Counted from the first letter of the stretch, positions 3,196-47,922 are shown. The stretch: 64,000 nucleotides of DNA from Schlesneria sp. (GCA_031412755.1 JANODP010000191.1:2454-66453); one strand, 5' to 3'. Numbers and translations: made by a program. Notes: generated by a model not told the origin, from the letters alone.

Positions 3196-3279
3196 GCCCA
3201 GGTGGCGGAACTGGCAGACGCGCTAGGTTCAGGACCTAGTTCCTTCACCGGAGTGCAGGTTCGATTCCTGTCCTGGGCA
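3196..3279 (+). tRNA. tRNA-Leu(CAG), CCA not encoded; integration target
   Basis: GCCCAGG acceptor stem pairs with CCTGGGC; D-loop GGCGGAACTGGCAGAC; anticodon stem CTAGG-TTCAGGA-CCTAG; long variable arm; T-loop GGTTCGATTCC. Confidence 0.97.
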
Positions 3280-3334
3280 TCTTGGTAACAAAGGACTTGG
3301 GGAAATGCTTCCCAAGTCCTTTTTCTTTTCGCTC
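3225..3334 (+). repeat. attL: 110-bp direct repeat with 47813-47922
   Basis: Base-by-base match from the anticodon stem to 55 bp past the tRNA; single mismatch (3319 C vs 47907 T). Confidence 0.95.
3290..3330 (+). terminator. Rho-independent terminator after the tRNA
   Basis: AAGGACTTGGG (3291-3301) / CCCAAGTCCTT (3311-3321) stem followed by a T-rich tract. Confidence 0.75.
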
Positions 3335-3342
3335 GTGTGAGT

Positions 3343-3362
3343 GGGGGGCAAATCGGGGGGCA
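3343..3362 (+). repeat. Putative integrase arm-binding site, left
   Basis: GGGGGGCAAATCGGGGGGCA, also present at 47665-47684. Confidence 0.65.
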
Positions 3363-3430
3363 ATGTTGGGGATGCGTGGCTTCTGCGTCGCTTTTCATCG
3401 CAGCGACAATCAATGCAGGGGGACGCACTC

Positions 3431-4642
3431 ATGGCTTGGCTCGAACGGAAGGGAAATGTCTTTCAGGTGTCGTTTCGCTGGGACGGTCGGAAGTTTCGAC
3501 GATCGCTCGGGACGACGGAGAAAGTGGATGCTGATGCCCGCGTGGCACGGATCGATCGACGGTTGCAGCTCATCGAGCAAGGTGATTTGGTGGTTCCTGA
3601 CGGAACGGACCTCCTTACCTTCTTGATGACCGACGGGAAGCCGCAGCCGAAGATCGTGCTGCCCACCAAGGAACTGACGTTGGCGGAGTTGTTCGAACAG
3701 TATCGAACGACTCTACCTGCCGACTCGATGGAGCGGAACTCGTGGTACACCGTGACCATCCACCTCAAGCATCTCGAAGCGCTGCTTGGCGCAAACTTCT
3801 CGGTGGTGAAGCTGACGATGGTCGATCTGCAGAAGTATGTCGATGGTCGAATGAAACAACCGGGGCGACGCGGGCGAATGCTGAGTCCGACGACGATCAA
3901 GAAGGAACTCACCAGCTTCAGCGGCGTGTGGACTTGGGCTATTCCACGGGGCTTGGTCAGCGGTCCATTCCCCAACAAGGGGCTGCGGTACAGCAAGATC
4001 GATCACAAGCAACCGTTTCAGACTCGGCAAGAGATCGAACGGCAGATCGGTCGCGGTGGGCTTTCCGAAGTCGAACAGGCCGAGTTGTGGGATGCCTTGT
4101 ATTTGGGTCTCGATGAGATCGATCAGGTCTTGCAACACGTACAGTCCCACGCACAACATCCCTTTCTTTTTCCGATGATGCTGATGGCGGCCCACACTGG
4201 AGCACGACGAAGTGAATTGATTCGGTCACAAGTCGCTGATTTCGACTTTGCCGCCGGTGTTGTTCATATTCGCGAGAAGAAGCGTGTCCGGGGGAAGCGC
4301 TCGCTGCGATCCGTTCCATTGTCGCAGCGGCTTCAAAAAGTGATGACGGAATGGCTCGATGGCGTGACCGGCCGGCATACGTTCGGTATGAACGGCGAGC
4401 CGCTTTCGGTACGCGAAGCATACGACCAATTCAAGCGAACGCTCGCGGGGAGTGCGTGGAAAAACGTGCGAGGATGGCATGTCTTCCGGCACTCGTTCAT
4501 CTCGAACTGTGCTGCGAAGGGACTCGACCAACGCATCATCGACGCATGGGCGGGACATCAGACGGAAGAGATGCGGCGGCGGTACACGCATCTCTTTCCG
4601 AACGTGCAACAGGCGGCGATTCGGTCAGTGTTTGAGCGGTAG
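3431..4642 (+). CDS. int: Tyrosine recombinase/integrase
   Basis: HTGARRSEL (Arg), HVFRHSF (HxxR), AGH and RRRYTH catalytic motifs; N-terminal arm-binding-like segment; start re-assigned to ATG 3431. Confidence 0.95.
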   Translation: MAWLERKGNVFQVSFRWDGRKFRRSLGTTEKVDADARVARIDRRLQLIEQGDLVVPDGTDLLTFLMTDGKPQPKIVLPTKELTLAELFEQYRTTLPADSMERNSWYTVTIHLKHLEALLGANFSVVKLTMVDLQKYVDGRMKQPGRRGRMLSPTTIKKELTSFSGVWTWAIPRGLVSGPFPNKGLRYSKIDHKQPFQTRQEIERQIGRGGLSEVEQAELWDALYLGLDEIDQVLQHVQSHAQHPFLFPMMLMAAHTGARRSELIRSQVADFDFAAGVVHIREKKRVRGKRSLRSVPLSQRLQKVMTEWLDGVTGRHTFGMNGEPLSVREAYDQFKRTLAGSAWKNVRGWHVFRHSFISNCAAKGLDQRIIDAWAGHQTEEMRRRYTHLFPNVQQAAIRSVFER

Positions 4643-4918
4643 CAATCCCTCGGACTGTATGCGTTGAAGTTCTTCGTGGGGAATCATCCATTCGAGAGAG
4701 CGTCCGCGCCCACTCGCTCTTTTCGTGGCGCGTACGCGGCCGTGCCGGCACCATTCCCGAATCGTGAACTCGGCCTTGCCGAGGATGCGGGCGGCATCGG
4801 CGGTCGAGTAGGACTGTTGCACTGTCTTCTGCTGCAAGAGGACTCGTAGCGAGTCCTCAATTCGATCCAACCGATTGACGAGCAGTGACAGTGCAATCGG
4901 ATCAGACAACTCGTTCAT
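4625..4918 (-). CDS. HTH_17/excisionase-like DNA-binding protein
   Basis: YSTADAARILGKAEFTIREWCRHGRV motif; converges on and overlaps the integrase 3' end. Confidence 0.8.
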   Translation of the reverse strand: MNELSDPIALSLLVNRLDRIEDSLRVLLQQKTVQQSYSTADAARILGKAEFTIREWCRHGRVRATKRASGRGRSLEWMIPHEELQRIQSEGLLPLKH

Positions 4919-5089
4919 CGGAGCACTCCGAAATTCTTCATGGAACTTTGTTGATGATGGACAGAATGGCGGCGAATCCGGGAACGGTCCATCGCGCGAC
5001 TCAGCAGGTCAATGCGGGTGATGCGAACTTCGCGATTCGACGTATTGCTGCGACAGTTGCGGGACACGGATAGCTGCGGTCAGCGAGGT

Positions 5090-5290
5090 TCAAGGACGAC
5101 GCGTACTGGTAGTCGCGGCCGTGGACGATCGGCAGGCGTTGAGGTATGCCTGGAACTGCTCCTCACTCACCCTGATCGCCCCGTCATGCGGTCCGATGCG
5201 GAACGCCTGGAGCTTTCCGGTCTCAACAAGTGCATACACCGTCGAGACCGCCACTCGCAGACGCTCCGCGACTTCAGGGACAGTCATCAT
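5090..5290 (-). CDS. Excisionase-family HTH protein
   Basis: MMTVPEVAERLRVAVSTVYALVETGKLQAFRIG…IRVS; start overlaps the stop of the upstream ORF. Confidence 0.85.
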   Translation of the reverse strand: MMTVPEVAERLRVAVSTVYALVETGKLQAFRIGPHDGAIRVSEEQFQAYLNACRSSTAATTSTRRP

Positions 5291-5487
5291 GTGGTTGGGT
5301 TTCCTTTCGCGGCCGGGCGGGAATCTCCACTCGGTTGTTCCGCCCTCGCCTTCAATGCGTCCCAGAAGTGTTTGCGACACAGCGTTCCTTTGAGGCCGTC
5401 GCGGAACGCGGCATCGACGGCGTCGTCGGTCTTCTGGCAGCACCAGATACAGGTGCCGGACGTGAGGTTGTTGATCGTGACGAGCAT
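5287..5487 (-). CDS. Small Cys-containing hypothetical protein
   Basis: 66 aa with CIWC…LCRKH; translationally coupled to the downstream HTH gene. Confidence 0.6.
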   Translation of the reverse strand: MLVTINNLTSGTCIWCCQKTDDAVDAAFRDGLKGTLCRKHFWDALKARAEQPSGDSRPAAKGNPTT

Positions 5488-5592
5488 CGGATTCTCCTAT
5501 CGGTGTGAGGATCGAACTTCACCGCGTGTCGGGCACGCGCCCGGCAGTTGCACGGAAATTGCTTTTCGACCATGACGTACACGCATGGGTGA

Positions 5593-5967
5593 TTACCTGG
5601 TTCGGCTGACGAATTTGTTGCCTCGCTTTTCAACGACGCATCCAGTTGGAAAAGAGGAAGCCAATTGCATGAGTTGCATTGCCTCCTCGCGGGCGTCATC
5701 GGATGTCAGGAAGTTGCCAAAGCCCGCCTCCGCGTAACTCGAACTGAGCTTTTCGGCGAACTCCTGTTCGGAAATCGGCGCCTCTTGAACGACGAACGTG
5801 GTTGTGGCTTTGTGGCACTGAATGCCGACGAGTGATCTGCGGCAGCCGCAAGGACCATCGATTCGCTCACCGTCGCATTCGGTGGCGAATCGGAGTAGCT
5901 CTCCGCACGCGACAAAACAAAAATCACTCTTTCGTTCGCCTTGCGTTTCTTTCGTTGCGACGAACAT
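5593..5967 (-). CDS. Hypothetical protein (DUF7715-like, Cys-rich)
   Basis: MFVATKETQG…DF…GEL…C…CGCRRSLVG…HKATTT pattern; start re-assigned to ATG 5967. Confidence 0.6.
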   Translation of the reverse strand: MFVATKETQGERKSDFCFVACGELLRFATECDGERIDGPCGCRRSLVGIQCHKATTTFVVQEAPISEQEFAEKLSSSYAEAGFGNFLTSDDAREEAMQLMQLASSFPTGCVVEKRGNKFVSRTR

Positions 5968-6025
5968 TTTTCTTGCCGGTGATGTGGATGCATTGCTACG
6001 CACGTGTGGAATGGGGAAAAGGAAA

Positions 6026-6727
6026 TCAACGCTTCTCGAACACCATGCAGGTGTCGTGAAGCCCTGGAATAAATGAGGACCGGTAAACCTTCGTGGAGCT
6101 GCTCGCCCCGTGGCTGAAACGAATGATGTCGGTGCAGCACTGCTTGAGACCTGCGGCGAAAGCCAGCCGCTTCGTCCAATAGGTCAACGGGACGAATCCC
6201 GCCTCACGGTCGCTGTAATCGCCCATGAGGATCGCGAGCTTCCCGCCTGGACTCAGCACCGATACGCAGTTGCGTATCAAGCAGTCGTAGCGGTGGATGA
6301 AGTAGGCGAGCGTCGGAGCGGTGCTCATGTCGCGCCGGTCGGTGCCGTATACCTTCATCCTCCAGTACGGTGGATGGATCCAACAAAAGTCGAACGCGCC
6401 GATTCCCTCGAAGTTCCTCGGATCGCAGGCATCGAACCCGAACCGGATGTCTTTCGATATGCAGAGAACGTCGAACTCGTCACACACATCGCGACACGTG
6501 CCGCTCCCCGTCATCGGGTCCAGGACCGTCTTCGGTTTGAAGTACCGAATGAGGTCTTTGATTAACTCTCCCGAACAATTGCCCGGATACCGACGGTCGC
6601 CATACGGTCCCGCGTCGGCGCGGTGGTAGAGGCTCGTGAGCCAGGGAACGGGGGAGCCGTTCGTCGGCGCGCGAGGGAGAACCGCAATCTGCGGTAGAGC
6701 CGGTGATGTGAATGCGACGCTTCGCAT
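6026..6727 (-). CDS. Orphan amino-DNA methyltransferase (N6-A/N4-C)
   Basis: SAM-binding VLDPMTGSGTC and catalytic-type HPPYW motifs; RBS-like spacing before ATG 6727; no cognate restriction enzyme nearby. Confidence 0.85.
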   Translation of the reverse strand: MRSVAFTSPALPQIAVLPRAPTNGSPVPWLTSLYHRADAGPYGDRRYPGNCSGELIKDLIRYFKPKTVLDPMTGSGTCRDVCDEFDVLCISKDIRFGFDACDPRNFEGIGAFDFCWIHPPYWRMKVYGTDRRDMSTAPTLAYFIHRYDCLIRNCVSVLSPGGKLAILMGDYSDREAGFVPLTYWTKRLAFAAGLKQCCTDIIRFSHGASSSTKVYRSSFIPGLHDTCMVFEKR

Positions 6728-6761
6728 GGTGAATAAGGAGAAAGAAGTAAGTTGCCCGCTT

Positions 6762-6961
6762 GTGCAGGCGAGCCTTGCACCTGCACGCCGCGGCCGGCGG
6801 TCAAAAGCCGCAGACCCGAGAGGGGACCGGCTTGACCGCCGAGAAGCCGCCAGCGTGCGAGAGTTCTGCCGCCTGCACGGAATTCCCAAAAGAGTTGCGG
6901 AGAGCGGGGGTAAACCTGCCCGCTTCCGCAAGAGGGAAGAGCGTCAAGGTCTGTCGCGCTG
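6762..6961 (-). promoter_or_regulatory. Nested-hairpin leader upstream of the methyltransferase (candidate ssDNA promoter)
   Basis: Inverted repeats 6762-6770/6870-6878, 6796-6804/6832-6840, 6895-6908/6919-6931; CTTGAC (6831-6836) complementary to GTCAAG (6943-6948). Confidence 0.4.
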
Positions 6962-7036: not shown

Positions 7037-7381
7037 TTACGCCGCAGCATCATGCTGCATCAAACCGGTGATCGTCTCCGATGCCTGCTGGCAGAGAGAG
7101 ACAATCTTTCCCAGAGATTCAGGATCGAAACTCCGGGTGTAACGATATCGGCCGTCCCGATCTTTGTACGACCTTTCGATCGTGATCGAGTAAAAGACCT
7201 TCGGCTTGCCCTGCACGAGATGTTCTCTCGCCCAGATACTCGCTGAACAGTCATCGACGCGAATCGTCGCTACCGGCTTACGCCCCGCATCCTGCGAAGC
7301 GTTGGTCGCATCCGTCGCGACCGGTTGTTCCGCCGTCTTTGTCACGGCAACGTCCTTGTTCTTCTTGGTGGCTTTTTCCAT
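7037..7381 (-). CDS. Small PC4/SSB-like putative ssDNA-binding protein (copy 1)
   Basis: SASIW…YSITIERSYKDRDGRYRYTRSF..ESL pattern shared with 7475-7726 and 16190-16525. Confidence 0.6.
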   Translation of the reverse strand: MEKATKKNKDVAVTKTAEQPVATDATNASQDAGRKPVATIRVDDCSASIWAREHLVQGKPKVFYSITIERSYKDRDGRYRYTRSFDPESLGKIVSLCQQASETITGLMQHDAAA

Positions 7382-7474
7382 AAAGCGTAGGGGGAAGGGA
7401 ACGGGTAAAAACCCAGCCGGCCGATTGCTCGCTTCCGTGAAAGAAAACAAGCGGCCGGGCTGGACGCCTGAAAA

Positions 7475-7726
7475 TCACTCGTTGGTCGGTTCAGCCTCCT
7501 TTGTCAGGATGTGCTCCCAAGCCTGGCCGATCAGCAACTGCGCAATCGGCAAGTCGTCCCGGCCGAGCGAAGTCGTCGTCTTCCACGCACCGCCGTCTTC
7601 GCGGTAGATCTTCTGAATGGTCACTTTGTGGAATGTGGTCTCACCCGAGCGGTTCTCGAAGACAGAGACCTTCACGCCGCGTCGGCGAAGCACGTGAATT
7701 GGCTTGTTGGTCGTTGATTCCGACAT
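7475..7726 (-). CDS. Small PC4/SSB-like putative ssDNA-binding protein (copy 2)
   Basis: VKVSVFEN…HKVTIQKIYREDGGAWKTTTSLGRDDLP; the ORF-track frame from 8365 is over-extended. Confidence 0.6.
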   Translation of the reverse strand: MSESTTNKPIHVLRRRGVKVSVFENRSGETTFHKVTIQKIYREDGGAWKTTTSLGRDDLPIAQLLIGQAWEHILTKEAEPTNE

Positions 7727-8106
7727 GGTATTGCTCCTCACGTTTGGTTGATGCGTGTTGGATTCAAGATGTGCGAAGGTCCGGTAAATGAGCGGCATTC
7801 GCGAGGAACTCCTGCGAGCGCAGGAAATGACCAAATCGGTCCACTTGCTGAGGCTGTACGGCTCGTGCTTCCATCGCGGCTGCACGGTTGGCGCTACGAA
7901 GTAGTCCTGACGGAACACTCGCCAGCGAGACGGTCGTTTGGCGTCCATGCGAGAGTGGGGAACTGAATAGAGCGCCGAAGAGCAGCAGAACAACCGACCC
8001 GCACTGCCCTGAGGGGCGGATAGGATGGCTCGGCTCGAACAGGAAGGGCGGACAGCTTCACTCCGCGCGAGCGGAGAACGGGCCGACCGCAGTCGGGGTG
8101 CCCGTT

Positions 8107-8360
8107 GGGGTGCCGGGGCGTAGCCCTGGCGAGTGTAGGTGCATCGTGGCGTGGAACGACTGACCATCGGGCGGACAGGGAGCGCAGCGAACAACCGCCC
8201 CCCCGAACTACACTCGCCAGGGATTGAACGGCCGTAGCCGTGAAAGCCCTGGCACCCCGAAGCTGGGGAGGGGACTGGAGTTGTCGCAATTCGTTGCATC
8301 GAACCACGGACGTCCGCCGCGGACCGATTCCGGACCTGTCGGCGGATGGATTCCGGACCT
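8107..8360. promoter_or_regulatory. Highly structured intergenic region 3' of relaxase 1 (candidate oriT/ssi or ncRNA)
   Basis: 13-bp stem 8107-8119/8246-8258 (one G-T), perfect 15-bp stem 8124-8138/8208-8222, direct repeat GATTCCGGACCT at 8326-8337 and 8349-8360. Confidence 0.45.
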
Positions 8361-8361
8361 T

Positions 8362-9228
8362 TCATGAGGCACCCCCTTGCGGCAGTCGGATCAGCGGTTG
8401 CAGCTCGTCGCCGTCGGTGCCGTAGAAGATCGGCTCGGTCAGTGCCTTCTCGGCCGTCCAGTCCGCAAATGCCGCGAACCGGTGGAGCGCTGCCCCTTCC
8501 CTCGACGCCACGGCTTTCCGAAGGAGATCACGCCGGCCGGGAGTGGGGGACACGTGCAGCACGGTGAACGACTCCGCGGTCGTCTTGAAGTGCCGCTCGT
8601 GGAGTCGTCCGGCGAGCATGGCCGCGAATCCGGGTGTCTTGGAGTTCGCGATCTGTTGGATGCCTGATGTACCTCGGTCCAATTCGAGGTAATAGGCTTT
8701 CGAGTGCTGGCCGATCTGCAACGCAAACGCGGCATCGGGTGCGCAGACGAGACGTGGCTTCTCTCGGATGAGGGTGAAGATCCGATATCGCTCGTGCGGT
8801 TCGCGAGCAAGCGGATTCACCTCGTCCCACTCGCCGAACCAACCGAGCACCGCGACGTCTGGATGACGGAGGACGGCCTCATTGAGGGTGACGTGGACTT
8901 GCGCGACGGCGGTCCAGTGAAACAAGTGCGTCCAGTCGGGAGTTTTTGTCGTCACGTGCAGATATCGCTCGTCGCCGTATTCGGCGGCGACCAGTTCCGC
9001 CCCCATCCGGCTCGGAAAATAGACGGGTGCCGGATTTCCAGCGGACGGGTTCAGCGCCTGCATCCGCGTTTTGCCAATCAAACCCGCCGCGTGAAGCTCC
9101 TGCAGGATGGCTCGCATCACCCGGTCATTGGAGACTCCGACGACGTGTTGAATCATCGGACGAGTCATCGTGTAGTAGTCACACACGGACTTGATCACGG
9201 CGAGTTTCCTGGGAGAAAGGACATTCAT
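8362..9228 (-). CDS. Replication-relaxation (Replic_Relax-like) protein 1
   Basis: N-terminal winged HTH, HLFHWTAVAQV, PDAAF…YYLELDRGT motifs. Confidence 0.8.
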   Translation of the reverse strand: MNVLSPRKLAVIKSVCDYYTMTRPMIQHVVGVSNDRVMRAILQELHAAGLIGKTRMQALNPSAGNPAPVYFPSRMGAELVAAEYGDERYLHVTTKTPDWTHLFHWTAVAQVHVTLNEAVLRHPDVAVLGWFGEWDEVNPLAREPHERYRIFTLIREKPRLVCAPDAAFALQIGQHSKAYYLELDRGTSGIQQIANSKTPGFAAMLAGRLHERHFKTTAESFTVLHVSPTPGRRDLLRKAVASREGAALHRFAAFADWTAEKALTEPIFYGTDGDELQPLIRLPQGGAS

Positions 9229-9237: not shown

Positions 9238-11085
9238 CTACAGCAGCGGATTGCCATTCGTCTCGATCTGGCCCGCTCTCTCTTGCGATACACCGAGAAC
9301 CTCGATCCGCGGGTGCAGAACCCGTTGGAGACGTTCCGTGGTTTCTCGCTCAATGACGCAGGGGGACGTAAACACCTCAGACCGATAGTTCTCCTCGATC
9401 ATTGCGCTAACGCGGTCGATCGCACTTGACTGGCAGCGCATGATTTTTGGTAAATCCCAACTCAGATAACCGGGAGCGTGCCGTCGGACGTCGACGCGGT
9501 AGAGCGCCGGATCATTCACCATGCGGAGCAGTGCCTGACCGGTCTTGAGCAGCCGGATCTCCTTCGCCCAGAGCGCCGCCTGCTCCTCGAACGTGTAATA
9601 CGACCGCCGCGACAGTTCCCGAAACGTCTCATACACGGGGAGGATCGACTGCCCGATGCTCATGCCGAATGTCTGCGATTTGCTGCCGCCCTCGCCGGTC
9701 GATTCGTTCTCGCCGTGCCCGGAGGATCTTCCAGCGCTTGAGTTGGTTGTCCGGCCTTCGGTGTGGCTGTTGCCCGATGTTCGGAGGTCGTGTGGGACAC
9801 CAAATCGACGAGCGGTGCTGTTGCTACTGGAATCACCGGCACTCGAACCGTTCGATGTCGAATTGGAGAATTGTTCCGACCAGTTCTTGCCGACGGTTTT
9901 CTGCCAATTGGTCGCTTCGGCTTCCGACTGTGACCATGTGGCGAGTTGGATGATCCGTTGTTCGCTCAAGAGTTGGCGGCGGGTGTAGACCTCGTCTTTG
10001 ATCCGTTCCGGGTCATAGGTGATCGACGCGAGTTCGTGGCCGAGGATGTCCGCGTCCTCGCCCTGCACTCCCATGATGAGCCGCGACTGGGCCTGGAAGA
10101 TCAGGGACGTGAGATCGGTGTCCCCTCGCTTGAGTTGCGAGAGTGATTGATGCGAGAAGAGGAGACGGACATCAAGTTGCCGGACCTCCGGGATTGCCTC
10201 TTCAATGTCCGGCCCGACGAACCGTTGGAACTCGTCAAGCAAGACGTAGGTCGGATATCGCACTCCGCGAGGCAACGACCTCGCAGTCGCGAGCAGCTCA
10301 TTCAGCACCATCCCGCCGATGGCGTCCGCGAGTTGCGACGACAAGCGGTTTTGCGGGGATAAGTTGAGGATGACAATCTTGCCCTCACGCATGAATCGGA
10401 GGACATCCAGGCGGTTCTCGGTTGAACCGAAAATACTGCGGAGAATTGGATTCTCGAAAAACGGTTTCAACCGATTCCGGCTCGATTCGAGAATGCGGCC
10501 GGCTTCGCCACCTCGGGCTTGGACGATCTCATTCCATTCGGCGCGCAATTGCTCGGGAAGCCGTGCAAGGAGGGGATCGTGGAGCATGCTGCCGGGCATG
10601 AGCAAATGCGCGCAGTCGGCCACCGTCAGTCCCAACTGGGCGACGGCCCACATCGCATTGAAGACCCAACGTGCGAGTCTCGGCATTTCCTCGATGTTCT
10701 GGCTTGCCCACGCCCGGAGAATCACATCGCCGGCACGCTGTGTCTTGAAGTATCCGTGGGCGGGCGTATCGAACAGCAACGGGTTGAACGTCGGCACGAT
10801 GTCCTCGCGGGACGCGTCGATATACACGACACGGTCACGAATCCATGACGGGCAGTACGGGGATGCAAACCACAACAAGAGCGATTGGGAGAAACTTCCC
10901 ATCCGGTCAAAGATGAAGAACGAGGCGACGCTCATGCTCATGAGTAACTGGTGGATCATGGCCTCGATCGCCGTGGTTTTGCCCTTTCCCGTGCCGCCGA
11001 TCAGGTGCCAATGCGTCCCGAAGGTTGTGGACGGAATCCGCACGCTTTGTCCCGATCGGGAATCTCTTCCAAGTAGTAAATTCAT
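9238..11085 (-). CDS. VirD4/VirB4-like P-loop ATPase 1 (coupling-protein-like)
   Basis: Walker A GGTGKGKT, Walker B VLLDEFQ, RQ…LFSHQSLSQL; Ser/Gly/Thr-rich insert. Confidence 0.85.
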   Translation of the reverse strand: MNLLLGRDSRSGQSVRIPSTTFGTHWHLIGGTGKGKTTAIEAMIHQLLMSMSVASFFIFDRMGSFSQSLLLWFASPYCPSWIRDRVVYIDASREDIVPTFNPLLFDTPAHGYFKTQRAGDVILRAWASQNIEEMPRLARWVFNAMWAVAQLGLTVADCAHLLMPGSMLHDPLLARLPEQLRAEWNEIVQARGGEAGRILESSRNRLKPFFENPILRSIFGSTENRLDVLRFMREGKIVILNLSPQNRLSSQLADAIGGMVLNELLATARSLPRGVRYPTYVLLDEFQRFVGPDIEEAIPEVRQLDVRLLFSHQSLSQLKRGDTDLTSLIFQAQSRLIMGVQGEDADILGHELASITYDPERIKDEVYTRRQLLSEQRIIQLATWSQSEAEATNWQKTVGKNWSEQFSNSTSNGSSAGDSSSNSTARRFGVPHDLRTSGNSHTEGRTTNSSAGRSSGHGENESTGEGGSKSQTFGMSIGQSILPVYETFRELSRRSYYTFEEQAALWAKEIRLLKTGQALLRMVNDPALYRVDVRRHAPGYLSWDLPKIMRCQSSAIDRVSAMIEENYRSEVFTSPCVIERETTERLQRVLHPRIEVLGVSQERAGQIETNGNPLL

Positions 11086-12023: not shown

Positions 12024-12036
12024 GGCTGCTGCCTCC

Positions 12037-17473: not shown

Positions 17474-17492
17474 TGCGAACGAGGGAACAGGA

Positions 17493-35955: not shown

Positions 35956-35958
35956 ACC

Positions 35959-38670: not shown

Positions 38671-38745
38671 TCTGAATTCACCTTCGTCGTTACTCATGAC
38701 TCTTCGTAACACCTCACGCAAATGGCCGCACAGATCTTGCTCGCT

Positions 38746-40008: not shown

Positions 40009-40361
40009 TCAAGAATCCATTTCCAGCAGTTCGGGAACTCCCCAATAGTGCTATTGTAAACGACAACATTCCACAAGTGGGTCTCAAAGGAATGAGACAA
40101 CCCTACAGGGTTAGCTTCGGAACGACACCGCTTTCGGATGGTGGTGGGATACAGTAGTTTCGCTACAGTGATCAAGTGTCCCGCCTGCGAAAAGAAACTG
40201 ATCGAATGGGATGGCACGGTGTTCCACACCCCTGTGTCGTCGCGCCAAACTCTTGCGCGGTAGAGGATCCTCACGCAGAAACTGCGGACGTCTCGGATCA
40301 CACCTTGCCATCAACAATTGATTGACGGTCGGATAGGATTCACCGCCCAGCGCGAGTTAAG

Positions 40362-41555
40362 TGAGGGTGTCCTGAAATTCAGAGTGCGTCCATGATCCAC
40401 TTGACTCGCCCGTTTTGATGGCCTCGTCGGTGGTTGTGTCGGACGAGCAGTTGGTAGATGAAAACGGCGGCCAAGAGTTGTGTGCGGTTGTTGTCGAGGC
40501 CGCGATGCCAGACCCGATGATCCAGTTCGAACAGGTTCTTGAACCAATCATGGAACGGTTCCACCGTTTGACCGCGTTGTGCGTACAGGCGTCGTCCCGC
40601 TCGGCTGTTCAGAAACCGGCGGCGTTCGAGACGGCGGCGATGGTGTTCGTCTCGCGGCGTGGGATGCACCGCGCCGGATGCCGGACGGCTGTTGCGGGGG
40701 TTCTCGGGACACAGGAAGCGGCGTCCCGTGCGGCGGTTGTGGGAACCATACTCGATCCGTTCTCCGGCCTCGTTGCTGTCGTAGCCGCTGTCGACCAGAA
40801 CGGATCGTGTCGCCGCCGGCAGGGCGGACAGTTTGTCGATCACGGTGGAGGTCTCTTTCGCGCTGGCCGTGTCGGCCGAAGCCAGCAGAGGGAAGACCAC
40901 CCGCTTGGGGGTGGCCGAGACCACGACCTCGACGCTGTAGCCCTGCACCCAGCCATCATGTTGCGAGCAGCCCCAGCGGCTGTCCCGATCCACACCACGC
41001 AGGCCCTTCGGAATGCGGTGGGCCTGTCGGTCCCGTTTGTGCCACAGTGGCCCCCGGGCGGCAATCAGGCTCTTGTCGATGGCGACAATCTTGGGGTCGG
41101 CCACCCCTTCCGTCACAGCGCGTTCGCCCTGCACGCGGATCGCCGATTGAAACAACCGATGCGCCCGCCGGTAGCGACGAAAGAACGTGCTGCGCGAAGG
41201 AAACGAAGCGTCCTTCACAACCGCCGCGATCTGCCGACGATGGTCGGGATCCGCGAGGAAGCGGAACTGCGACGACTTGCTCTTTTTGCGTTTGAGCACC
41301 GCGACCATAATCAACACACCCATCAACCAGTCGGGAATCTCGGGCTTGGCTCCCGGACCTGTCCTGGGGCATCGACGCTCGGCCTCCCGCAACAGCGGCA
41401 GAGCCATCCGCACCAACGCCGACAAATCCGTGCCCGTGGCGGCACGCTTACCCATCCTTGGGGCCTCTCGTTGCGTTGCGTTTCTTCTTGGCAGAACAAA
41501 CGTAAACGCACAGAGGCCCCTTGGTTTAGATCAATTCAATTTCAGGACACCCTCA
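40362..41555 (-). mobile_element. IS element (DDE_Tnp_1; IS5/IS4-like), 1194 bp
   Basis: Perfect 18-bp TIR TGAGGGTGTCCTGAAATT (40362-40379 / 41538-41555); GTTAAG duplicated on both sides (40356-40361, 41556-41561). Confidence 0.92.
40379..41455 (-). CDS. DDE transposase
   Basis: VAIDKSLI, LVDSGYD, RGQTVEPFHDWFK DDE triad. Confidence 0.9.
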   Translation of the reverse strand: MGKRAATGTDLSALVRMALPLLREAERRCPRTGPGAKPEIPDWLMGVLIMVAVLKRKKSKSSQFRFLADPDHRRQIAAVVKDASFPSRSTFFRRYRRAHRLFQSAIRVQGERAVTEGVADPKIVAIDKSLIAARGPLWHKRDRQAHRIPKGLRGVDRDSRWGCSQHDGWVQGYSVEVVVSATPKRVVFPLLASADTASAKETSTVIDKLSALPAATRSVLVDSGYDSNEAGERIEYGSHNRRTGRRFLCPENPRNSRPASGAVHPTPRDEHHRRRLERRRFLNSRAGRRLYAQRGQTVEPFHDWFKNLFELDHRVWHRGLDNNRTQLLAAVFIYQLLVRHNHRRGHQNGRVKWIMDAL

Positions 41556-42098
41556 GTTAAGTAAGTACCGTGGATGCCGAGACGGGAACTTCGCAAACAG
41601 TCCCTGTAAGACGTACCGTGTTTGGTCTCGAAGGTGGCGCAATCGTTCCCATCATTCTTGTGGCTTGTTCATCATCTTCCCGTCATGCCAACTGAATCCA
41701 TCGAAGCGATCAGGTGAACCGTCCCAGACGACTGTCATCAGTTTCCCACAATAACCGGGCAGCCCGTGACATAGATGTCGTAGACAACGATGTATGCAGT
41801 GCATGCGGTCAGTGCTGCACCATTCCTCATCGTAGCTCTGCCCGTGAAGCCAGCTCGCTAACTACTTGATCTCGCCGATGCTCCGCTCAAGTTATGCTTT
41901 GCAGACACCGAGGATCTCGAACGAGAGCGGGCGCGTCTCGATGAACAATGGCGATAGTAGCTGGTAAGGGGCACTCATCAGACCGACCGTACTGCACGAC
42001 AGTTCCATGCTGTCGAACCGGAGATCGGGCTCGTGGGTCGTACGCGCGAGAAGAACTGGGGATACCGCAAGTACCACTGTTGAGATCGTGTATTCTCT

Positions 42099-42974
42099 TC
42101 AATCACCGATCCTGCTGAAGGTCATTCTCCACAGTTCCAACTGGCCTGTCTCAAAGGCGAATATTGATAGCTGCAAGTACTTTTGATAACGCGAGACAAC
42201 CTCATCTCCAACGAGCGAGCGAGCTTCATCTGCTCGGTTTCGAAGCCTTCTGAGCCACTCCGTACAAGTTTGAGCGTATCCCAGCCGGTCATTCGAGGCA
42301 GATTCAAGCTCAAATCGAGTGTTGGCCGCACGAACAACCTCGTCAAACTGTGGCGGATCCGTCTCCCGAAAAATCTCATTGGCCAGGAAGCGAGTCGCTC
42401 GCGAACTGTGCGACTTCTCTCGAGTCGCTCGACTGCCATAGGCAAACGTCTGCAACGAGAGCCTTCCGCCTGGAGCCAGATATTGGTGACACCAACTAAA
42501 GAAGGCGCGATACTTCGCCAGTCTGCTCTCGTCGGAATCAGTGAATCGGGCGAAGTGCTCAAACGCACCGATCGAAATCATCGCGTCGTAACATTGACTC
42601 GGGACGTGGTCAGCCCAGCTCTCGACCCTCACTTCGACATGCGATAGGTTCATCTCGGCAATCCACAACGCCTGATTTTGACTGAGAGTCAAACCGACCG
42701 CATGTGAAACGCCAGATTCGGTCGTTAGCCTCTTCATCACACCTCCCCAGCCACAGCCGATATCGAGAACGCGAGTGCGGGCCTGTGCCTTGGCTGCAAA
42801 TATGTGATGGTCAATCTTGCGAATCTGAGCATCCCGCAGTGAATCGCCCTCTTTCCAGAGCGCGCCGGAATAGGTCATCGTCGAGTCCAGCCAGAGGGCG
42901 TAGAAGTCATTGCTGATATCGTAGTGGTGCTCGATCGCTTCACGCGATGCACCGGCCATCGAATCGCTCATCAT
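42099..42974 (-). CDS. Cyclopropane-fatty-acyl synthase (CMAS)-family SAM methyltransferase
   Basis: IEHHYDISNDFYALWLD.TMTYS, VLDIGCGWGG, ISIGAFEH; start ATG 42974. Confidence 0.9.
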   Translation of the reverse strand: MMSDSMAGASREAIEHHYDISNDFYALWLDSTMTYSGALWKEGDSLRDAQIRKIDHHIFAAKAQARTRVLDIGCGWGGVMKRLTTESGVSHAVGLTLSQNQALWIAEMNLSHVEVRVESWADHVPSQCYDAMISIGAFEHFARFTDSDESRLAKYRAFFSWCHQYLAPGGRLSLQTFAYGSRATREKSHSSRATRFLANEIFRETDPPQFDEVVRAANTRFELESASNDRLGYAQTCTEWLRRLRNRADEARSLVGDEVVSRYQKYLQLSIFAFETGQLELWRMTFSRIGD

Positions 42975-43005
42975 GATCACCTGCGGGTACTGGATTTTGG
43001 GCGCG

Positions 43006-43251
43006 TTAATTGAGCTTTCCAAGGTGACTTGCCAAGGCCTCGATTGACCGATACTTGAACGGCAGACTGGGTGACAACTCCCTGCCAAGCAATGTCTCCA
43101 TGCTTAGCGTCAAATTCACAGCTGCCATGGAGTCAAGCCCATAGCGATCAAACGGTTCGGTCGGAGAAATCTCTCCAGGGGCCAACTCCAGTTCCTTGGC
43201 CAATTCCTCAACCAACCGCTGCCGGATCTCTTCAACACTCCGCTTGATCAT
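43006..43251 (-). CDS. Acyl carrier protein (PKS/JamC type)
   Basis: PFDRYGLDSMAAV…LGRELSPSL; start ATG 43251. Confidence 0.9.
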   Translation of the reverse strand: MIKRSVEEIRQRLVEELAKELELAPGEISPTEPFDRYGLDSMAAVNLTLSMETLLGRELSPSLPFKYRSIEALASHLGKLN

Positions 43252-44290
43252 GCTTATCCCCCGAGTTTTGGTAAATGGAAGTGTCATCGCCTCGGACAAT
43301 CTTGCTCTCGATCAACTCTCGCGATGGATATCGAACATCCCACACAATTCCAAGACGCTCAAGGAAACGAATCAGAAGGCCTCCTGGGTCGAATTGCCAC
43401 CATCTCATCGACATGATGGCGGATGCTGGAAAGGCATGATGATTGTTGTGCCAGGATTGTCCCAATGTTGGGATTGCAAGCAGAAAACTGTTCGTACTCT
43501 TGTCTCGAGTCTTGAAGGGGCGAGTTCCAAACGCATGGGTCACGGAATTGATGCACCAATAGAAGACATGATTCATCACGAAGACCCGGACAAATCCTCC
43601 CCATAGGACTCCGAGCACCGCGTTTTCCCAGGATAAGGTGACGACTCCAGCGATCAGTCCCGGCAGCAGGAATCCGGCCGCCAGCCAGTAAAAGTAGACG
43701 CGATGCACGCTGAACACCAGCGGGTCACCGTAGAGGTCAGGAGCGTATCGTTCCCACCCAAGTTTGCGAGTCGAGTCTCTCACAAAGAGCCAACCCAGAT
43801 GAGCATGAAACAAACCTCTCAGCAGCTTGGGATTGTCATGCGTGGCAAAGCTGTGAGGTGAATGTGGATCTCCGCATTGGTCGCTGAACTGGTGATGCCT
43901 CCGATGGGTCGCTGCCCACCAGATCACCGGCCCTTGAAATGCCGTGGAACCCATGACGGCCAGTAGCCACCGGATGGCAGGAATTGTCTGAAAACTCCTA
44001 TGCGAGAAGTGACGATGGAATCCCACCTCCACACCCACAAGTGCGATCAAGTGCATCGACAACCATGCCAACAATCCCACCCATCCCGGTGGGTAGCCAA
44101 AGTACATCATGACCAACGCCGCCACAAACCCCAGGGCCGGCGCGACCGTGACTAGCCATGCGAATCGCCGATCCAAACGAGATAAGCGCACCAGTGACAA
44201 CTCACGACTCTGAACCACCGTCGTCCTATCAACAACTGGGCCCAAGAGAACCTGCTCAAACACTGTTCCCGACTCTGAGATTTCTTCCAT
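43232..44290 (-). CDS. Membrane fatty-acid desaturase/acetylenase (JamB-like)
   Basis: His boxes HRHFSH, HRRHH, HNNHH; QGPVIWW, GDPHSP, LWGGFVR. Confidence 0.9.
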   Translation of the reverse strand: MEEISESGTVFEQVLLGPVVDRTTVVQSRELSLVRLSRLDRRFAWLVTVAPALGFVAALVMMYFGYPPGWVGLLAWLSMHLIALVGVEVGFHRHFSHRSFQTIPAIRWLLAVMGSTAFQGPVIWWAATHRRHHQFSDQCGDPHSPHSFATHDNPKLLRGLFHAHLGWLFVRDSTRKLGWERYAPDLYGDPLVFSVHRVYFYWLAAGFLLPGLIAGVVTLSWENAVLGVLWGGFVRVFVMNHVFYWCINSVTHAFGTRPFKTRDKSTNSFLLAIPTLGQSWHNNHHAFPASAIMSMRWWQFDPGGLLIRFLERLGIVWDVRYPSRELIESKIVRGDDTSIYQNSGDKHDQAEC

Positions 44291-44322
44291 ATTGACCTTC
44301 CGCACGGGCGTTGATTCCGGGT

Positions 44323-45939
44323 TTACTCTCCAAATCGGTGGCGATTCAAGTGTTCGGCAATGTAACTGTCTCGGCATGCACCTCGACGGATTTTGCCGCT
44401 GGATGTTGTTGGTAAACCTCCCGGTTCAAGGAAAACGACGTCCGCCACTCGCAATGAGTGCTCACGTGAGACCGCCTCGATGATGTTCCCGCTCAGGACG
44501 AGCGACGCGTGCCTCTGCAGACGACGATCGACAACTTCACAGACAACCACAATCCGCGTTTCTTCAGTCATGAACGCACAAATGCGGCCAGGTCTGATGC
44601 TCGGAATTGCTCTCTCAATGGAATACTCGATGTCTTCGGGATAGTAGTTTGCGCCTGCAATGATCCAGGAGTCCTTCAGCCGTCCTGCGATATACAACTG
44701 TCCGTCGCTTACGAAACCAAGGTCTCCTGTGCGAAGAAAGGGGCCTTCTCCGGTCTCGGCGATATACCCGTTAAATGTTTCTGACCGGTTCTCACCCCAG
44801 TATCCTGCCGCTACACATGGACTGCTGATCCAGATCTCCCCGACCTGAGTGTCGGGTAGCCGTCGATGCGTGCAGGGATCGACAATTCGGATGTTCGTGC
44901 CCGTTCTCCAGTGGCCGCAACTCGCGAAGCCGCTCTCAGCCCTGCTGCAATGGCCGCCGGACACGAACAGTGTTGCTTCAGCCAGGCCGTAACATGGAAA
45001 GAATGCTTCATGCCGAAAACCGCACCTTGCAAACGTTTTTGCAAATTGCGTCATGGTCTGAGCACGTACAGGCTCTGATCCGTTGAAGGCGACGCGCCAA
45101 CTACTCAGATCGATGCCACTGAGGTCTTCGGCCGAAAGTTTTTGTACACAGTGACGATAACAGAAATCTGGGCCGCCGCTTGTCGTACCACCGTACTCGG
45201 AAATCGCAATCAGCCATAGCTTGGGACGCATCAAAAATGTCATCGGGGACATCAAAACGGCAGTCGCCCCGAGATAGATTGGTTGCATAACGTTTCCGAT
45301 AAGTCCCATGTCGTGGAAAAGCGGTAACCAGCCAACCACGACGGTTTCCTGATTGTGTCCAAACGACTCGCAAATCATCCGCTGATTCTGCATGAGATTG
45401 TCGTGAGAGACTACGACGCCGCGAGGTTGGGATGTCGAACCTGATGTATACTGAATCATAGCGACGTCAGCAGATCGAAGATGAGTGTTCGGAACTCCAC
45501 CGTCATTACTGACGTTTCCGGTAAGCAAGTGCGCTAACTCGGAGTCCTCTTCGGTCCCGAGCAGCATCGCAGGATCTGCGTTATTGAGGAGTGAAACGAG
45601 TCGATCAAACCTCGAGTTCGGATTGGGTGCATGGAGAGGGACAGCGATAGCGCCGGCGTAAATGCAACTCAGAAAATCGATCAGAAACTCGTCAGAATTT
45701 GTACGACTAAAGACAGCCACTCGTCGTTCAGCCATCCCGCGTTCAGCGAGTTCGCCAGCCCTTTGCCGACAGGAATCGTCAAGCTCTCTATAAGTCAATT
45801 GCTTTCGTTGTCGGCCCCGCTCATCCAAAAACACAAACGCCAACCGGTCAGGAGTCTGCCGAGCATGATGCTGCAGGATATTGATGAGTCCACTACGGTG
45901 GCTCAATTGTCGTCCTTTCGTAGCGATGGCGATTGACAC
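44323..45939 (-). CDS. Fatty acyl-AMP ligase-like adenylating enzyme
   Basis: QYTSGSTSQPRGV, WLPLFHDMGLIG, NGSEP, CYGLAEATL, LRTGDLGF, TTSSGKIRR. Confidence 0.9.
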   Translation of the reverse strand: MSIAIATKGRQLSHRSGLINILQHHARQTPDRLAFVFLDERGRQRKQLTYRELDDSCRQRAGELAERGMAERRVAVFSRTNSDEFLIDFLSCIYAGAIAVPLHAPNPNSRFDRLVSLLNNADPAMLLGTEEDSELAHLLTGNVSNDGGVPNTHLRSADVAMIQYTSGSTSQPRGVVVSHDNLMQNQRMICESFGHNQETVVVGWLPLFHDMGLIGNVMQPIYLGATAVLMSPMTFLMRPKLWLIAISEYGGTTSGGPDFCYRHCVQKLSAEDLSGIDLSSWRVAFNGSEPVRAQTMTQFAKTFARCGFRHEAFFPCYGLAEATLFVSGGHCSRAESGFASCGHWRTGTNIRIVDPCTHRRLPDTQVGEIWISSPCVAAGYWGENRSETFNGYIAETGEGPFLRTGDLGFVSDGQLYIAGRLKDSWIIAGANYYPEDIEYSIERAIPSIRPGRICAFMTEETRIVVVCEVVDRRLQRHASLVLSGNIIEAVSREHSLRVADVVFLEPGGLPTTSSGKIRRGACRDSYIAEHLNRHRFGE

Positions 45940-46759
45940 ATTCTACCGTCTTCGAAATCACAGACTCACTGGCCAATAGATGCCTATGCCCGAGGCCCGT
46001 CGTCTCAAAGAACTCTGACTTAGGCCAAGACATCGCAACTGCTCGGCCTTCTTCGACTGGAACCTGCTCGTCTGAGATATCATGAATGATTGTGGCTGGA
46101 ATCTTCATGCGGGTGGCTTGAAAGACTGTCGAGAACTCGTTCCATACCCCTTCCCCGAAATCGTTCTCAAGCAACTGCCGTAGTGAGGACACAACCGAAG
46201 GGCTGTAACCAAACCGACAAGACACCTTGTCGGCCATCCCAGCGAACGTTGAGGGTGGCGCGAGGAGTACGGCATACCGTGCTGCGAGTCCACGGCGAAT
46301 TGCCAACGTGGCACAAGTCGATCCCAAAGAGTGCGCAACGACAGCATAGGGCTGACCGAAATGTTCCGCAAACCTCAGTAGTGCATCCGCCATCTGGCCA
46401 ATATCAGTCTTGCGTCCTGAGGACTTCCCATGAGCTGGCAGGTCAACTAGTACAGCTTGAAATCCATGGCCGACGAACGCCTTCACGAACTTTCGAAAGT
46501 CTCCAGAATGACCTCCCCAACCGTGAACAAAAAAAACCAATGCCCCTTGAGTGCCGGCATGTTGTGCAGACAACACTTCACGACCATGGGCAAAGGTAAT
46601 GTAGCGTGTCCCAGGAAGCGTTGTGTGATTGTTAAGAGCAGTGCGAGAGAATGCCGGACGGTACCATGCGTAATGAGCAACCCGAGCGCGCATTCCAGGG
46701 ATCAGATTCAAGAACCACATTAGTAGGGGTTTGGTCGAATTCCTGACAAGATTTTTCAT
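45893..46759 (-). CDS. Alpha/beta hydrolase (possible thioesterase)
   Basis: VHGWGG, AHSLG nucleophile, HDISD, GLGHR; overlaps the ligase start. Confidence 0.85.
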   Translation of the reverse strand: MKNLVRNSTKPLLMWFLNLIPGMRARVAHYAWYRPAFSRTALNNHTTLPGTRYITFAHGREVLSAQHAGTQGALVFFVHGWGGHSGDFRKFVKAFVGHGFQAVLVDLPAHGKSSGRKTDIGQMADALLRFAEHFGQPYAVVAHSLGSTCATLAIRRGLAARYAVLLAPPSTFAGMADKVSCRFGYSPSVVSSLRQLLENDFGEGVWNEFSTVFQATRMKIPATIIHDISDEQVPVEEGRAVAMSWPKSEFFETTGLGHRHLLASESVISKTVECVNRHRYERTTIEPP

Positions 46760-47282
46760 GGACGACCAGTCTTCAAACAGTGAACTCCTTCTTCAAGGAC
46801 GAATTTACCAGATTGGATTGGAAAATCCATCAAAGAGAGGAAAAGTTTGGCCATAGGCGTATTGTTGATTCCGTATTTTGAAGGGGATATCAGATTCGTT
46901 GTATCCTGCTTTGCACTAGAAAATACGCAACAAGGACGATGATTTTCGACGCCGCTCGGAAGTGGTTTTGGCAGACGTTACAGACGGCGCAGAGGATCTG
47001 GTTTTGATGTCGGAGGAACCCAAGAATCAGATACGAGCAGTTGCCAGAAGATCAATGCTCCCACATTGTCAGAATTGTGTCAGAGAAACCTTGGAAACGG
47101 CAGTAGTAGTAGTGTGTGGAGCGGACGGTCGCTCGCATTTCTCTCCAAACTCTTGTGCAGGTCCCGGTGTAGATTGGCTTCCGGCGGATTCAACCAATGA
47201 TCTACGGAACCGAAGTACGGAGTCTACTGGAAGACACTTTCATTTCTGGTTACGCCAACATCCGCCACGCGAAAACAAACGA

Positions 47283-47652
47283 TCATTCGTGGGGCCATGA
47301 AATCAACTGCTTCCTCTGCCAGGTGGCGATCAGTGAAAAGGGTGCCCAATGCCAAGGATGCGGGAGCATTTGCCGGGTAGAATTGAAAAGATACTCATAC
47401 TTGATTGTTTGAATGAAATTCTCCATGTGTCCATTCAAATTCGGCGAAGTCACCGGCAGGGGATTGGTCGTGATGCTTTTCTTCTTGAGCGTCGCGACGG
47501 AAGTCCTTGGTGAACTTCGTGTCCCTGTCATGCATCACGATGGACGGCTTTTCTGTTCGTACCGCAGTCTGCTGATTGAATGCGTCCGTTTGTTTCACTT
47601 CAAAGTTCGAATTTGGCTTTGGCAGGACGGGTGAAAATATGCCGCAAAGCAA
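47283..47652 (-). pseudogene. Frameshifted remnant of an rve-type (integrase core) transposase
   Basis: IVMHDRDTKFTKDF in one frame, LPVTSPNLNGHMENFIQTIKYEYL in another. Confidence 0.7.
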
Positions 47653-47658
47653 CTATCA

Positions 47659-47684
47659 CAAATCGGGGGGCAAATCGGGGGGCA
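47659..47684 (+). repeat. Putative integrase arm-binding site, right
   Basis: CAAATCGGGGGG x2 + CA, about 130 bp inside attR, same orientation as the left copy. Confidence 0.65.
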
Positions 47685-47812
47685 GGCTTGGACGTTCAAG
47701 TTCAATTTGAATAGAATGCGACTGCAACCCAGAACCATTGAATGCTTGTGTAATACATGGGCATTCAACGTGTTCCCAACGTTCCTCATATCCAAACAAG
47801 ATGAGCTTGAGC

Positions 47813-47922
47813 AGGTTCAGGACCTAGTTCCTTCACCGGAGTGCAGGTTCGATTCCTGTCCTGGGCATCTTGGTAACAAAGGACTTGGGGAAATGCTTCC
47901 CAAGTCTTTTTTCTTTTCGCTC
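47813..47922 (+). repeat. attR: 3' half of tRNA-Leu plus terminator
   Basis: 109/110 identity to 3225-3334; lacks the tRNA 5' half. Confidence 0.95.

Follow-up and report, generated by a model that had tools for sequence, protein, structure and literature searches.

A 44.6-kb element in a tRNA-Leu(CAG) gene of Schlesneria sp. as a probable member of a planctomycete family of integrative, replicative and mobilizable-type plasmid-like elements

Results

A 110-nt Repeat of tRNA-Leu(CAG) Brackets 44.6 kb

We analyzed a stretch of 64,000 nucleotides (nt) from Schlesneria sp. (GCA_031412755.1 JANODP010000191.1:2454-66453), referred to below at its full length as the window, in which an initial annotation had recognized an apparently excision-competent element of the integrative and conjugative (ICE) or the integrative and mobilizable (IME) type. 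Of the direct repeats in the window, the longest measures 110 nt, and its two copies, identical at 109 of 110 positions with a start-to-start distance of 44588 nt, bracket 44.6 kb. Alignment places the single difference, C/T, in the T-run after a hairpin, and similarity between the copies ends sharply at both repeat edges. The left copy overlaps the sole tRNA gene in the window, and the repeat is therefore made up of the last 55 nt of this tRNA and the 55 nt of terminator region that follow. It is present in two copies only, in the window and in the 8.65-Mb assembly alike, the one further match in the assembly being a partial, 42-nt match at another tRNA-Leu on contig C185 (labels in C, G and L denote contigs, genomes and loci). 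As judged from sequence, the element interrupts tRNA-Leu(CAG) within its 3′ half and restores the tRNA by its own copy, with the repeat at both ends. G-rich 12-nt units, repeated about twice on each inner side of the attachment site, are candidate arm-type sites. The features of the attachment region are:

3196-3279, plus strand: tRNA-Leu(CAG), predicted integration target, complete gene at attL (ARAGORN)
3225-3334: attL copy of the 110-nt repeat (alignment), tRNA 3′ 55 nt and terminator hairpin
3343-3369: G-rich 12-nt unit GGGGGGCAAATC, about two units, between attL and the integrase gene, candidate arm-type site
47659-47691: second site of the G-rich 12-nt unit, 122 nt inside attR, counterpart of 3343-3369
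47813-47922: attR copy of the 110-nt repeat (alignment), displaced tRNA 3′ half

The G+C content is 0.49-0.62 within the element versus 0.60-0.64 in the flanks. The left flank is of host-genus type, with an NHL-repeat gene and the tRNA 77-90% identical in relatives. In one such relative (G017) an unrelated 361-residue tyrosine integrase follows the same tRNA-Leu(CAG) (L013, G017:C404, 411-1496, minus strand), which makes this tRNA a shared integration hot spot; the same genome has ∼1.36 kb of extra DNA between the NHL gene and the tRNA. Another contig of the window's own genome (C203:2081-2907) holds three tRNA-Leu genes (GAG, CAG, CAA) in ∼830 bp, and tRNA-Leu(CAG) is thus not single-copy in the assembly.

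The Integration Module Recurs beside tRNA Genes

Directly inside attL lie an integrase gene and two excisionase-like genes:

3341-4642, plus strand: tyrosine integrase, probable start ATG 3431 (PF00589, 69.8 bits versus a cut-off of 27.1)
4625-4918, minus strand: HTH_17 excisionase-like gene 1, conserved integrase partner (31.5 bits; PHROG excisionase match)
5090-5443, minus strand: HTH_17 excisionase-like gene 2 (PF12728, E 2.8e-12, 47.1 bits; PHROG excisionase match, phrog_66)

The R, HxxR, H and Y residues that define tyrosine recombinases align with those of XerA (5hxy), and homologs align only from residue 26-31 onward, making ATG 3431 the likely start. Integrase homologs of 30-56% identity were found in 41 of 151 genomes of the host family (the window's own genome counted), usually adjoined by an HTH_17 homolog. 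A tRNA gene stood beside the integrase homolog in 22 of the 23 loci examined (16 Leu, 3 Gln and one each of Asn, Met and Lys). At two integrase loci (G084:C121 and G056:C11) the neighboring conserved protein and the first relaxase-like gene described below follow in the order of the window, joined in G084 by the first ATPase gene. In G059 the integrase homolog heads a 24.2-kb island, bounded by a 33-nt repeat, that lacks the relaxase backbone, and the integrase module is therefore exchangeable. Beside a tRNA-Leu(GAG) of the window's own genome we also observed a truncated integrase homolog (C185:23679-24554; 46% identity over residues 5-241), which looks like a decayed insertion.

A Predicted Initiator, Direct Repeats and a Primase Form a Candidate Replicon

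The central part of the element carries genes and repeats of the kind found in plasmid replicons:

22316-23512, plus strand: DnaG-like Toprim primase, start set from homologs
27440-28108: candidate origin, with iteron-like repeats and an inverted repeat
28109-29617, minus strand: predicted replication initiator (Rep), RPA/RepE/RctB-like, 502 residues
29593-30648, minus strand: conserved Rep partner (o351), 351 residues, weak helix-turn-helix

No Pfam family matches Rep at E <= 0.01. The protein Atlas places Rep among RPA clusters (score 0.97; 23 of 30 matches), and three planctomycete plasmids carry genes, annotated as "replication initiator protein A", with which tblastn aligns it at 24-26% identity (E 1e-6 to 8e-4). 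A search with its AlphaFold2 model (predicted local distance difference test [pLDDT] 77.9) in Foldseek returned RctB domains 2-3 (E 4e-11) and RepE54 (3e-4) at a probability of 1.00, with low TM-scores of 0.19-0.45. The tandem winged-helix fold suggested by the model, together with direct repeats beside the gene, would fit an iteron-type initiator.

These repeats, perfect over 24 nt and spaced 56 nt apart (28019-28042 and 28075-28098), lie just 3′ of the Rep gene. Degenerate and inverted copies of their core are also found near the gene, and a 23-nt inverted repeat (27560-27640) lies ∼450 nt from them. Direct repeats occupy the same position in all four regions that include this flank (the window, C336, C275 and C381): C336 has the repeat core of the window at equal spacing, and in C275 and C381 another unit, of 18 nt, is repeated three times. 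Differing repeats at one position beside diverged initiators look like cognate iterons, and they could alternatively be relaxase binding sites.

The open reading frame (ORF) of the primase matches the DnaG domain model TIGR01391 (E 5e-8) and a PHROG primase (E 2.6e-7), its Toprim match falling below the Pfam cut-off. Paralogs match this long ORF only from residue ∼277-300, which sets the gene at ∼22316-23512; the N-terminal extension (21431-22260) is taken as the shadow of an opposite-strand gene. The primase gene is divergent from a Replic_Relax gene.

Two Relaxase-like Genes Each Adjoin a VirD4/TraG-like ATPase Gene

The element encodes two Replic_Relax proteins, and the gene of each adjoins that of a VirD4/TraG-like ATPase, giving two pairs:

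8362-9228, minus strand: Replic_Relax 1, MOBC-type relaxase-like nuclease (PF13814, 47.3 bits versus 25.3)
9238-11085, minus strand: ATPase-1, soluble and VirD4/TraG-like (PF10412, PF02534 and PF01935 above cut-off)
11082-13391, minus strand: three membrane-protein ORFs of 353, 290 and 217 residues (hydropathy), the first overlapping the ATPase-1 start by 4 nt
18869-21115, minus strand: ATPase-2, ∼748 residues, an N-terminal ∼300 residues of no assigned family followed by a TrwB/VirB4/DndH-like ATPase domain
21362-22267, minus strand: Replic_Relax 2, MOBC-type (PF13814, 53.3 bits versus 25.3; phrog_9381)

PF13814 is the MOBC relaxase family (PMC5357655 and PMC12857230, both as available in part) and has a restriction-endonuclease-like fold (PMC3424549). 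Six Replic_Relax paralogs that share only 19-39% identity keep H104, P164-D165, E182, D184 and K197 invariant (relaxase 1 numbering), and the combination of the profile match with these PD-(D/E)XK-type residues (PD..ExD..K) is what would be expected of MOBC relaxases.

PF10412 matches the ATPases with 29.6 and 35 bits (cut-off 20.5), as expected of type IV coupling proteins, and the coupling-protein families TrwB_AAD_bind, T4SS-DNA_transf and TraG-D_C all score above their Pfam cut-offs, whereas FtsK_SpoIIIE reaches 16.7 bits versus a cut-off of 24. The Walker A and B motifs of ATPase-2 are invariant. In its AlphaFold2 model (pLDDT 71.0), the C-terminal domain superposes on TrwB with a VIA-align Z of 28.9 and a root mean square deviation (rmsd) of 4.0 over 371 residues, compared with Z of 18-21 for HerA and 16.7 for FtsK. 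A homolog of ATPase-2 was also seen on a Sulfitobacter plasmid, where the gene context is uninformative. Searches of PDB sequences gave no match for Rep, ATPase-1 or relaxase 1.

Hydropathy plots reveal no transmembrane segment in either ATPase. A membrane ORF directly precedes ATPase-1 in all three elements examined (the window, C275 and G162), and ATPase-1 and this protein could thus together be a split coupling protein; the membrane ORF sequences are not conserved between element copies.

The Backbone Recurs at Other tRNAs with Other Integrases and Cargo

Searches of the window's own genome by tblastn with the backbone proteins located backbone copies on ∼10 other contigs, with gene order kept, and a profile search gave 12 PF13814 matches. 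Two copies are delimited by repeats of their own. A 49.7-kb sister element on C275 lies between perfect 46-nt repeats of a tRNA-Arg(ACG) 3′ end (181-226 and 49847-49892), and one on C347 (7558-38913) is bounded by two tRNA-Leu(CAA) sites ∼31 kb apart, both of which carry the same 63 nt as a perfect repeat. Both carry tyrosine integrases unrelated to that of the window, and their cargo differs: acyl-CoA dehydrogenase, a condensin MksE/DUF3584-like pair (on C275), ABC transporter, desaturase, PAS histidine kinase, ParA and an ORC/CDC6-like protein. The initial annotation had made its proposal of a mobile element hinge in part on homologous backbones at other tRNA loci, and such backbones, with other cargo, thus exist in the window's own genome and elsewhere.

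Beyond this genome, the complete genome of another genus (G162) has the same primase-to-integrase order beside a tRNA-Leu(CAA), and G054 has the Rep-to-methylase part of the backbone; within the DNA examined, no distal repeat was found in G162 or G084. At E <= 1e-5 the database holds 385 relatives of Rep. The best 120 of these 385 are 64-88% identical to it, and none of those 120 bears a Pfam domain or functional name. Fifty Rep loci of 56-86% identity come from named metagenome-assembled genomes (MAGs) of Planctomycetota, labeled Pirellulaceae, Planctomycetaceae, Gemmataceae, Isosphaeraceae and others. Across these loci, many of which end at contig ends, the Rep-origin-primase-relaxase-ATPase module has an invariable gene order; the 351-residue partner is present in 43 of 50, the primase in 24, relaxase 2 in 20 and ATPase-2 in 15. 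Within the genus the distribution is patchy, DNA from ATPase-2 to primase being matched in 7 of 33 genomes. PF13814 is matched in 17 of 251 sampled Planctomycetota genomes, in 9 of them above cut-off. The window's own element has no copy in the 32 other genus genomes, where the best DNA identity is 74%. On these comparisons, the element probably belongs to a widespread planctomycete family of integrative plasmid-like elements whose backbone recurs at other tRNAs.

All the parts that the initial annotation had listed were borne out by these data, namely intact integrase motifs, near-perfect attachment repeats, a pair of excisionase-like genes, a primase, a Rep candidate with adjoining repeats and, as given below, a toxin-antitoxin pair; plasmid-like replication functions, too, appear to be present in the form of an iteron-type Rep and a primase.

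Other Backbone Genes, Cargo and the Right Flank

The remaining genes of the element are as follows:

5593-6003, minus strand: DUF7715 protein
6026-6931, minus strand: DNA-methylase-like protein, kept in the family (weak PF01555; PADLOC MTase_II; paralogs)
7037-8365, minus strand: two conserved proteins of no assigned function, 137 and 296 residues (tandem 22-nt repeat at 8319-8363)
13913-15073, plus strand: HTH_3 regulator fused to an alpha/beta-hydrolase-like domain
16691-18200, minus strand: N6 DNA methyltransferase (16691-17473; PF02384, 49.2 bits; paralogs) and a conserved 235-residue protein
18199-18894, plus strand: VapBC-like pair, a 93-residue ORF (18199-18480) and then a PIN toxin (18484-18894; PF01850, 42.9 bits)
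23644-27424, minus strand: Lamassu/ABC-3C defense cargo, LmuB, LmuC and LmuA with Cap4 nuclease, between primase and candidate origin
30860-46759: lipid/polyketide-type cargo, including an IS1182-like transposase (40379-41455)

The defense cargo has the genes of a Lamassu/ABC-3C system: PADLOC models match LmuB (E 1.4e-38), LmuC (5.6e-12) and LmuA (9.6e-13; its best match is HamA, 1.7e-52), and Pfam Cap4_nuclease and MC4 match as well. At the position between primase and origin Lamassu is absent from most related loci, and inserts of varied size are seen there (e.g., L092, L083 and L094).

In the lipid/polyketide-type cargo, genes for a DUF1702 protein, an FG-GAP/UnbV-ASPIC protein, a membrane protein and a hotdog thioesterase stand in a row (30860-35955, plus strand). 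DUF1702/FG-GAP-type accessory genes accompany enediyne polyketide synthases (PMC7692728, as available in part); the window contains no large polyketide synthase. A lipid-tailoring cluster on the minus strand (38422-46759) encodes an acyl carrier protein, a FabF-like ketosynthase, a CMAS cyclopropane/methyl-transferase, a second acyl carrier protein, a desaturase, a fatty acyl-AMP ligase and an alpha/beta hydrolase, and is interrupted by the IS1182-like transposase gene. An rve fragment lies at 47283-47531. The ORFs 22283-22909 and 18067-18984 (both minus strand) and 5012-5575 and 40415-41560 (both plus strand) are taken as shadows of opposite-strand genes.

Just outside attR, a 234-residue ORF of no assigned function (47977-48681, plus strand) has an 80% identical paralog on C175 of the same genome and a homolog in G017; the G017:C752 homolog is closer to C175 than to the window. 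Directly right of attR there is also a complete Shango defense system (48770-54478, minus strand; PADLOC SngC E 6e-237, SngB 1e-168, SngA 3.5e-58). Four of five genus relatives searched have no DNA match to this stretch and G017 has a partial match of 68%, so a second variable island follows the tRNA.

Class Assignment and Proposed Mechanism

Of the hallmarks of an ICE, the element appears to have an integrase with attachment repeats, proteins of a relaxase family and a type IV coupling protein; VirB4 and mating-pair-formation genes were not found. An integration/excision module of its own with a relaxase and no pore is the makeup of an IME. The element lacks that of an actinomycete ICE (AICE), which has an FtsK/SpoIIIE-like TraB and no relaxase. 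Given that no VirB4 or pore gene was found in element or genome, the element is IME-like rather than an ICE by standard criteria, and the IME half of the original designation is the one that stands. In its workings, we propose, it would come closest to an IME that encodes a coupling protein of its own.

The integrase and an HTH_17 protein would excise the element as a circle by recombining within the repeat, and Rep and the primase would maintain that circle by replication from the iteron origin. Nicking of a putative origin of transfer (oriT) would fall to a Replic_Relax protein, and the partner ATPase would pass the DNA to a pore. As the element encodes no known pore, it would be mobilized in trans, as an IME is, or through unrecognized proteins. 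The methyltransferases may shield DNA on its entry; the toxin pair and defense genes may stabilize the element.

Discussion

Our preferred interpretation is that the 44.6-kb element belongs to a family of planctomycete elements that are integrative, replicative, of mobilizable type and plasmid-like, and we consider this likely. Integration and the replicon are its best-supported parts, several independent lines of sequence and model evidence converging on each. We infer the transfer role from the families to which the relaxase-like and coupling-type proteins belong and from the conservation of these proteins in the backbone.

A number of observations weigh against this interpretation. On the side of transfer, searches of Pfam, NCBIfam and PHROGs found no VirB4 or mating-pore family in the element, although divergent components are conceivable, and the genome, 96.4% complete, gave no PF03135 match and a single PF12846 match, below cut-off. 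No oriT was recognized: the region 21100-21380 has no repeat or structure signal, and the spacer 21116-21361 folds no better than shuffled sequences (z +1.18). The PADLOC model mad8 matches both ATPases (E 3.6e-13 and 2.4e-20) and mad2 matches the N6 methyltransferase, and the fold of ATPase-2 ties TrwB (Z 28.9) with the C-domains of DndH (28.0) and VirB4 (27.8). As to the replicon, the best Pfam family for Rep at E <= 1 is RPA, which is sub-threshold (13.5 bits versus 27), and none of three related contigs looks circular, the start of each not being found again at its end. Taxon labels of MAGs may mislead where contigs are mobile, which makes the taxonomic breadth provisional.

Further such points concern the insertion site. 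A sequence search found neither the attP nor the attB junction in the assembly. No relative has the exact empty site, and the right flank (47923 onward) is not beside the tRNA in G002, G017, G023, G001 or G024. In G002 there is no integrase within 4 kb of the tRNA, and the downstream DNA is unlike the right flank of the window and resembles the element-side arm: an arm-like G-rich motif follows the tRNA, and then a TPR gene, the ortholog of which lies in the window's own genome on C328, behind a gene read as serS. When this locus (L015, G002:C669, 1100-1330) is set beside 3335-3369 of the window, the G-rich arm-like motif is seen after tRNA-Leu(CAG), the hairpin sequence differs and no integrase is present. 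The motif may be a remnant attL or the product of a rearrangement.

Several of these points would fit an integrative plasmid on which the nuclease-ATPase pairs and methyltransferases are defense or maintenance modules and which spreads by transformation, vesicles or transduction. The mad8 and mad2 matches (the latter supported by NCBIfam MAD2, E 3.5e-5) point in that direction, given that the defense system MADS holds an ATPase-nuclease module, MAD7-MAD8 (PMC13662399, as available in part), as do the near-equal fold scores of DndH and TrwB, the methyltransferase found near each nuclease-ATPase pair and the failure to find pore genes. However, the pairs are conserved backbone genes whose synteny with Rep and primase is fixed over the 50 loci, whereas the recognized defense systems, Lamassu and the condensin MksE/DUF3584-like pair of C275, are variable inserts. 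Moreover, the Replic_Relax proteins match no PADLOC model at E <= 1e-5 and the Pfam coupling-protein families score above their cut-offs. We therefore regard a defense or maintenance role of the pairs on such a plasmid as unlikely.

The element might instead be an immobile relic that integrated once and can now neither excise nor transfer. The IS1182-like transposase in the cargo and the rve fragment near attR would agree with decay, as would the lack of a near-identical copy elsewhere (identity is 88% for the best Rep relative and, at the DNA level within the genus, <= 74%) and of a circle or empty-site junction in the assembly. Yet the backbone ORFs are all full length with intact catalytic motifs, the two attachment copies differ at a single position of 110 and the repeats that bound sister copies in this genome are perfect, and we think it quite improbable that the element is a relic.

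A true ICE with a pore built from unrecognized proteins (ATPase-2 as a VirB4 analog, the membrane proteins upstream of ATPase-1 and the conserved proteins of no assigned function) seems very improbable: the genome has many family copies and no VirB4, ATPase-2 has a VirB4-like layout of an N-terminal ∼300 residues and a C-terminal ATPase whose full-length alignments with TrwK span residues 1-728 (though at an rmsd of ∼14) and a membrane protein directly precedes the soluble ATPase-1 in 3 of 3 elements, but no pore component is supported by sequence or fold, the membrane ORFs vary in sequence between copies and the N-terminal domain of ATPase-2 gives only a protein Atlas lead to DUF8128. A tandem fusion of two elements was rejected, there being no third attachment copy and the double relaxase/ATPase layout recurring in C275, C420, G162 and G054, and so was a prophage, as none of 30 backbone proteins scanned has a structural PHROG match.

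Known systems share parts of the design that we favor, an integrative, replicative element of mobilizable type. In AICEs such as pSAM2 and SLP1, one element unites integration at a tRNA site (int, xis) with autonomous replication (rep) and an ATPase of the hexameric DNA-translocase type, and AICEs move double-stranded DNA by an FtsK-like TraB, without a relaxase. The element follows the same overall logic of tRNA integration, replication and ATPase and is not a member: its ATPase is nearer TrwB than FtsK (Z 28.9 versus 16.7), relaxase-like nucleases are present and the Rep family differs. In the mobilizable plasmid CloDF13 the coupling protein is MobB; the relaxase of this plasmid is MobC (PMC12857230, as available in part). 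The streptococcal IME_Class_8 (PMC5357655, likewise) shares with the element a MOBC relaxase beside its own VirD4-like ATPase, the lack of pore genes and site-specific integration. Unlike IME_Class_8 and CloDF13, the Schlesneria element has a tyrosine rather than a serine integrase, two relaxase/ATPase pairs rather than one, soluble ATPases, one of them with a separate preceding membrane protein, and an iteron replicon with primase, in 44.6 kb and in a planctomycete host. The studied MOBC relaxase TraX of pAD1 is linked to the proteins described here by PF13814 membership only, the conserved acidic/lysine residues here being of PD-(D/E)XK type; the TraX binding site has direct repeats (PMC12857230, in the part available), and direct repeats likewise occur near genes of the element.

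Within the phylum, planctomycete plasmids have RPA initiators with iterons (10.1101/2024.01.22.576637, as available in part). Rep is related to the initiators annotated on three planctomycete plasmids and likewise has repeats beside its gene, whereas it is only 24-26% identical to them, its Pfam RPA match is sub-threshold and the element is integrated in a tRNA. The available part of the same preprint describes MOBF and MOBP relaxases, often with a coupling protein, on planctomycete chromosomes and makes no mention there of MOBC; it also reports no complete mating system on these chromosomes and gives conjugation among Planctomycetes as unreported. In the literature that we searched on planctomycete integrative and conjugative elements and on Replic_Relax and coupling proteins, we found no description of this element family, though Supplementary Table S7 of the preprint, outside the part available, might list similar ones. 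What is new is that one backbone recurs in one genome at different tRNAs with different integrases and cargo.

In a phylum without reported conjugation, the element and its relatives thus provide a concrete mobile backbone that is widespread, appears intact and carries defense systems and lipid/secondary-metabolite genes between tRNA sites. Its three testable parts (integrase and attachment site, iteron replicon, two relaxase/ATPase pairs) would, if active, account for the spread of cargo in the phylum and could supply planctomycete genetic tools. Should the pairs not be transfer genes, they would constitute a conserved nuclease-ATPase module of another role on a plasmid-like island. A bolder idea, which we hold to be doubtful, is that these are phylum-wide self-transmissible integrative plasmids that move DNA without canonical type IV secretion, around two pairs of MOBC nucleases and VirD4-VirB4-like ATPases with small membrane partners. 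If true, it would count as the first conjugation-like system native to Planctomycetota, and the Rep-origin cassette would be a ready source of replicating vectors for bacteria that are hard to engineer.

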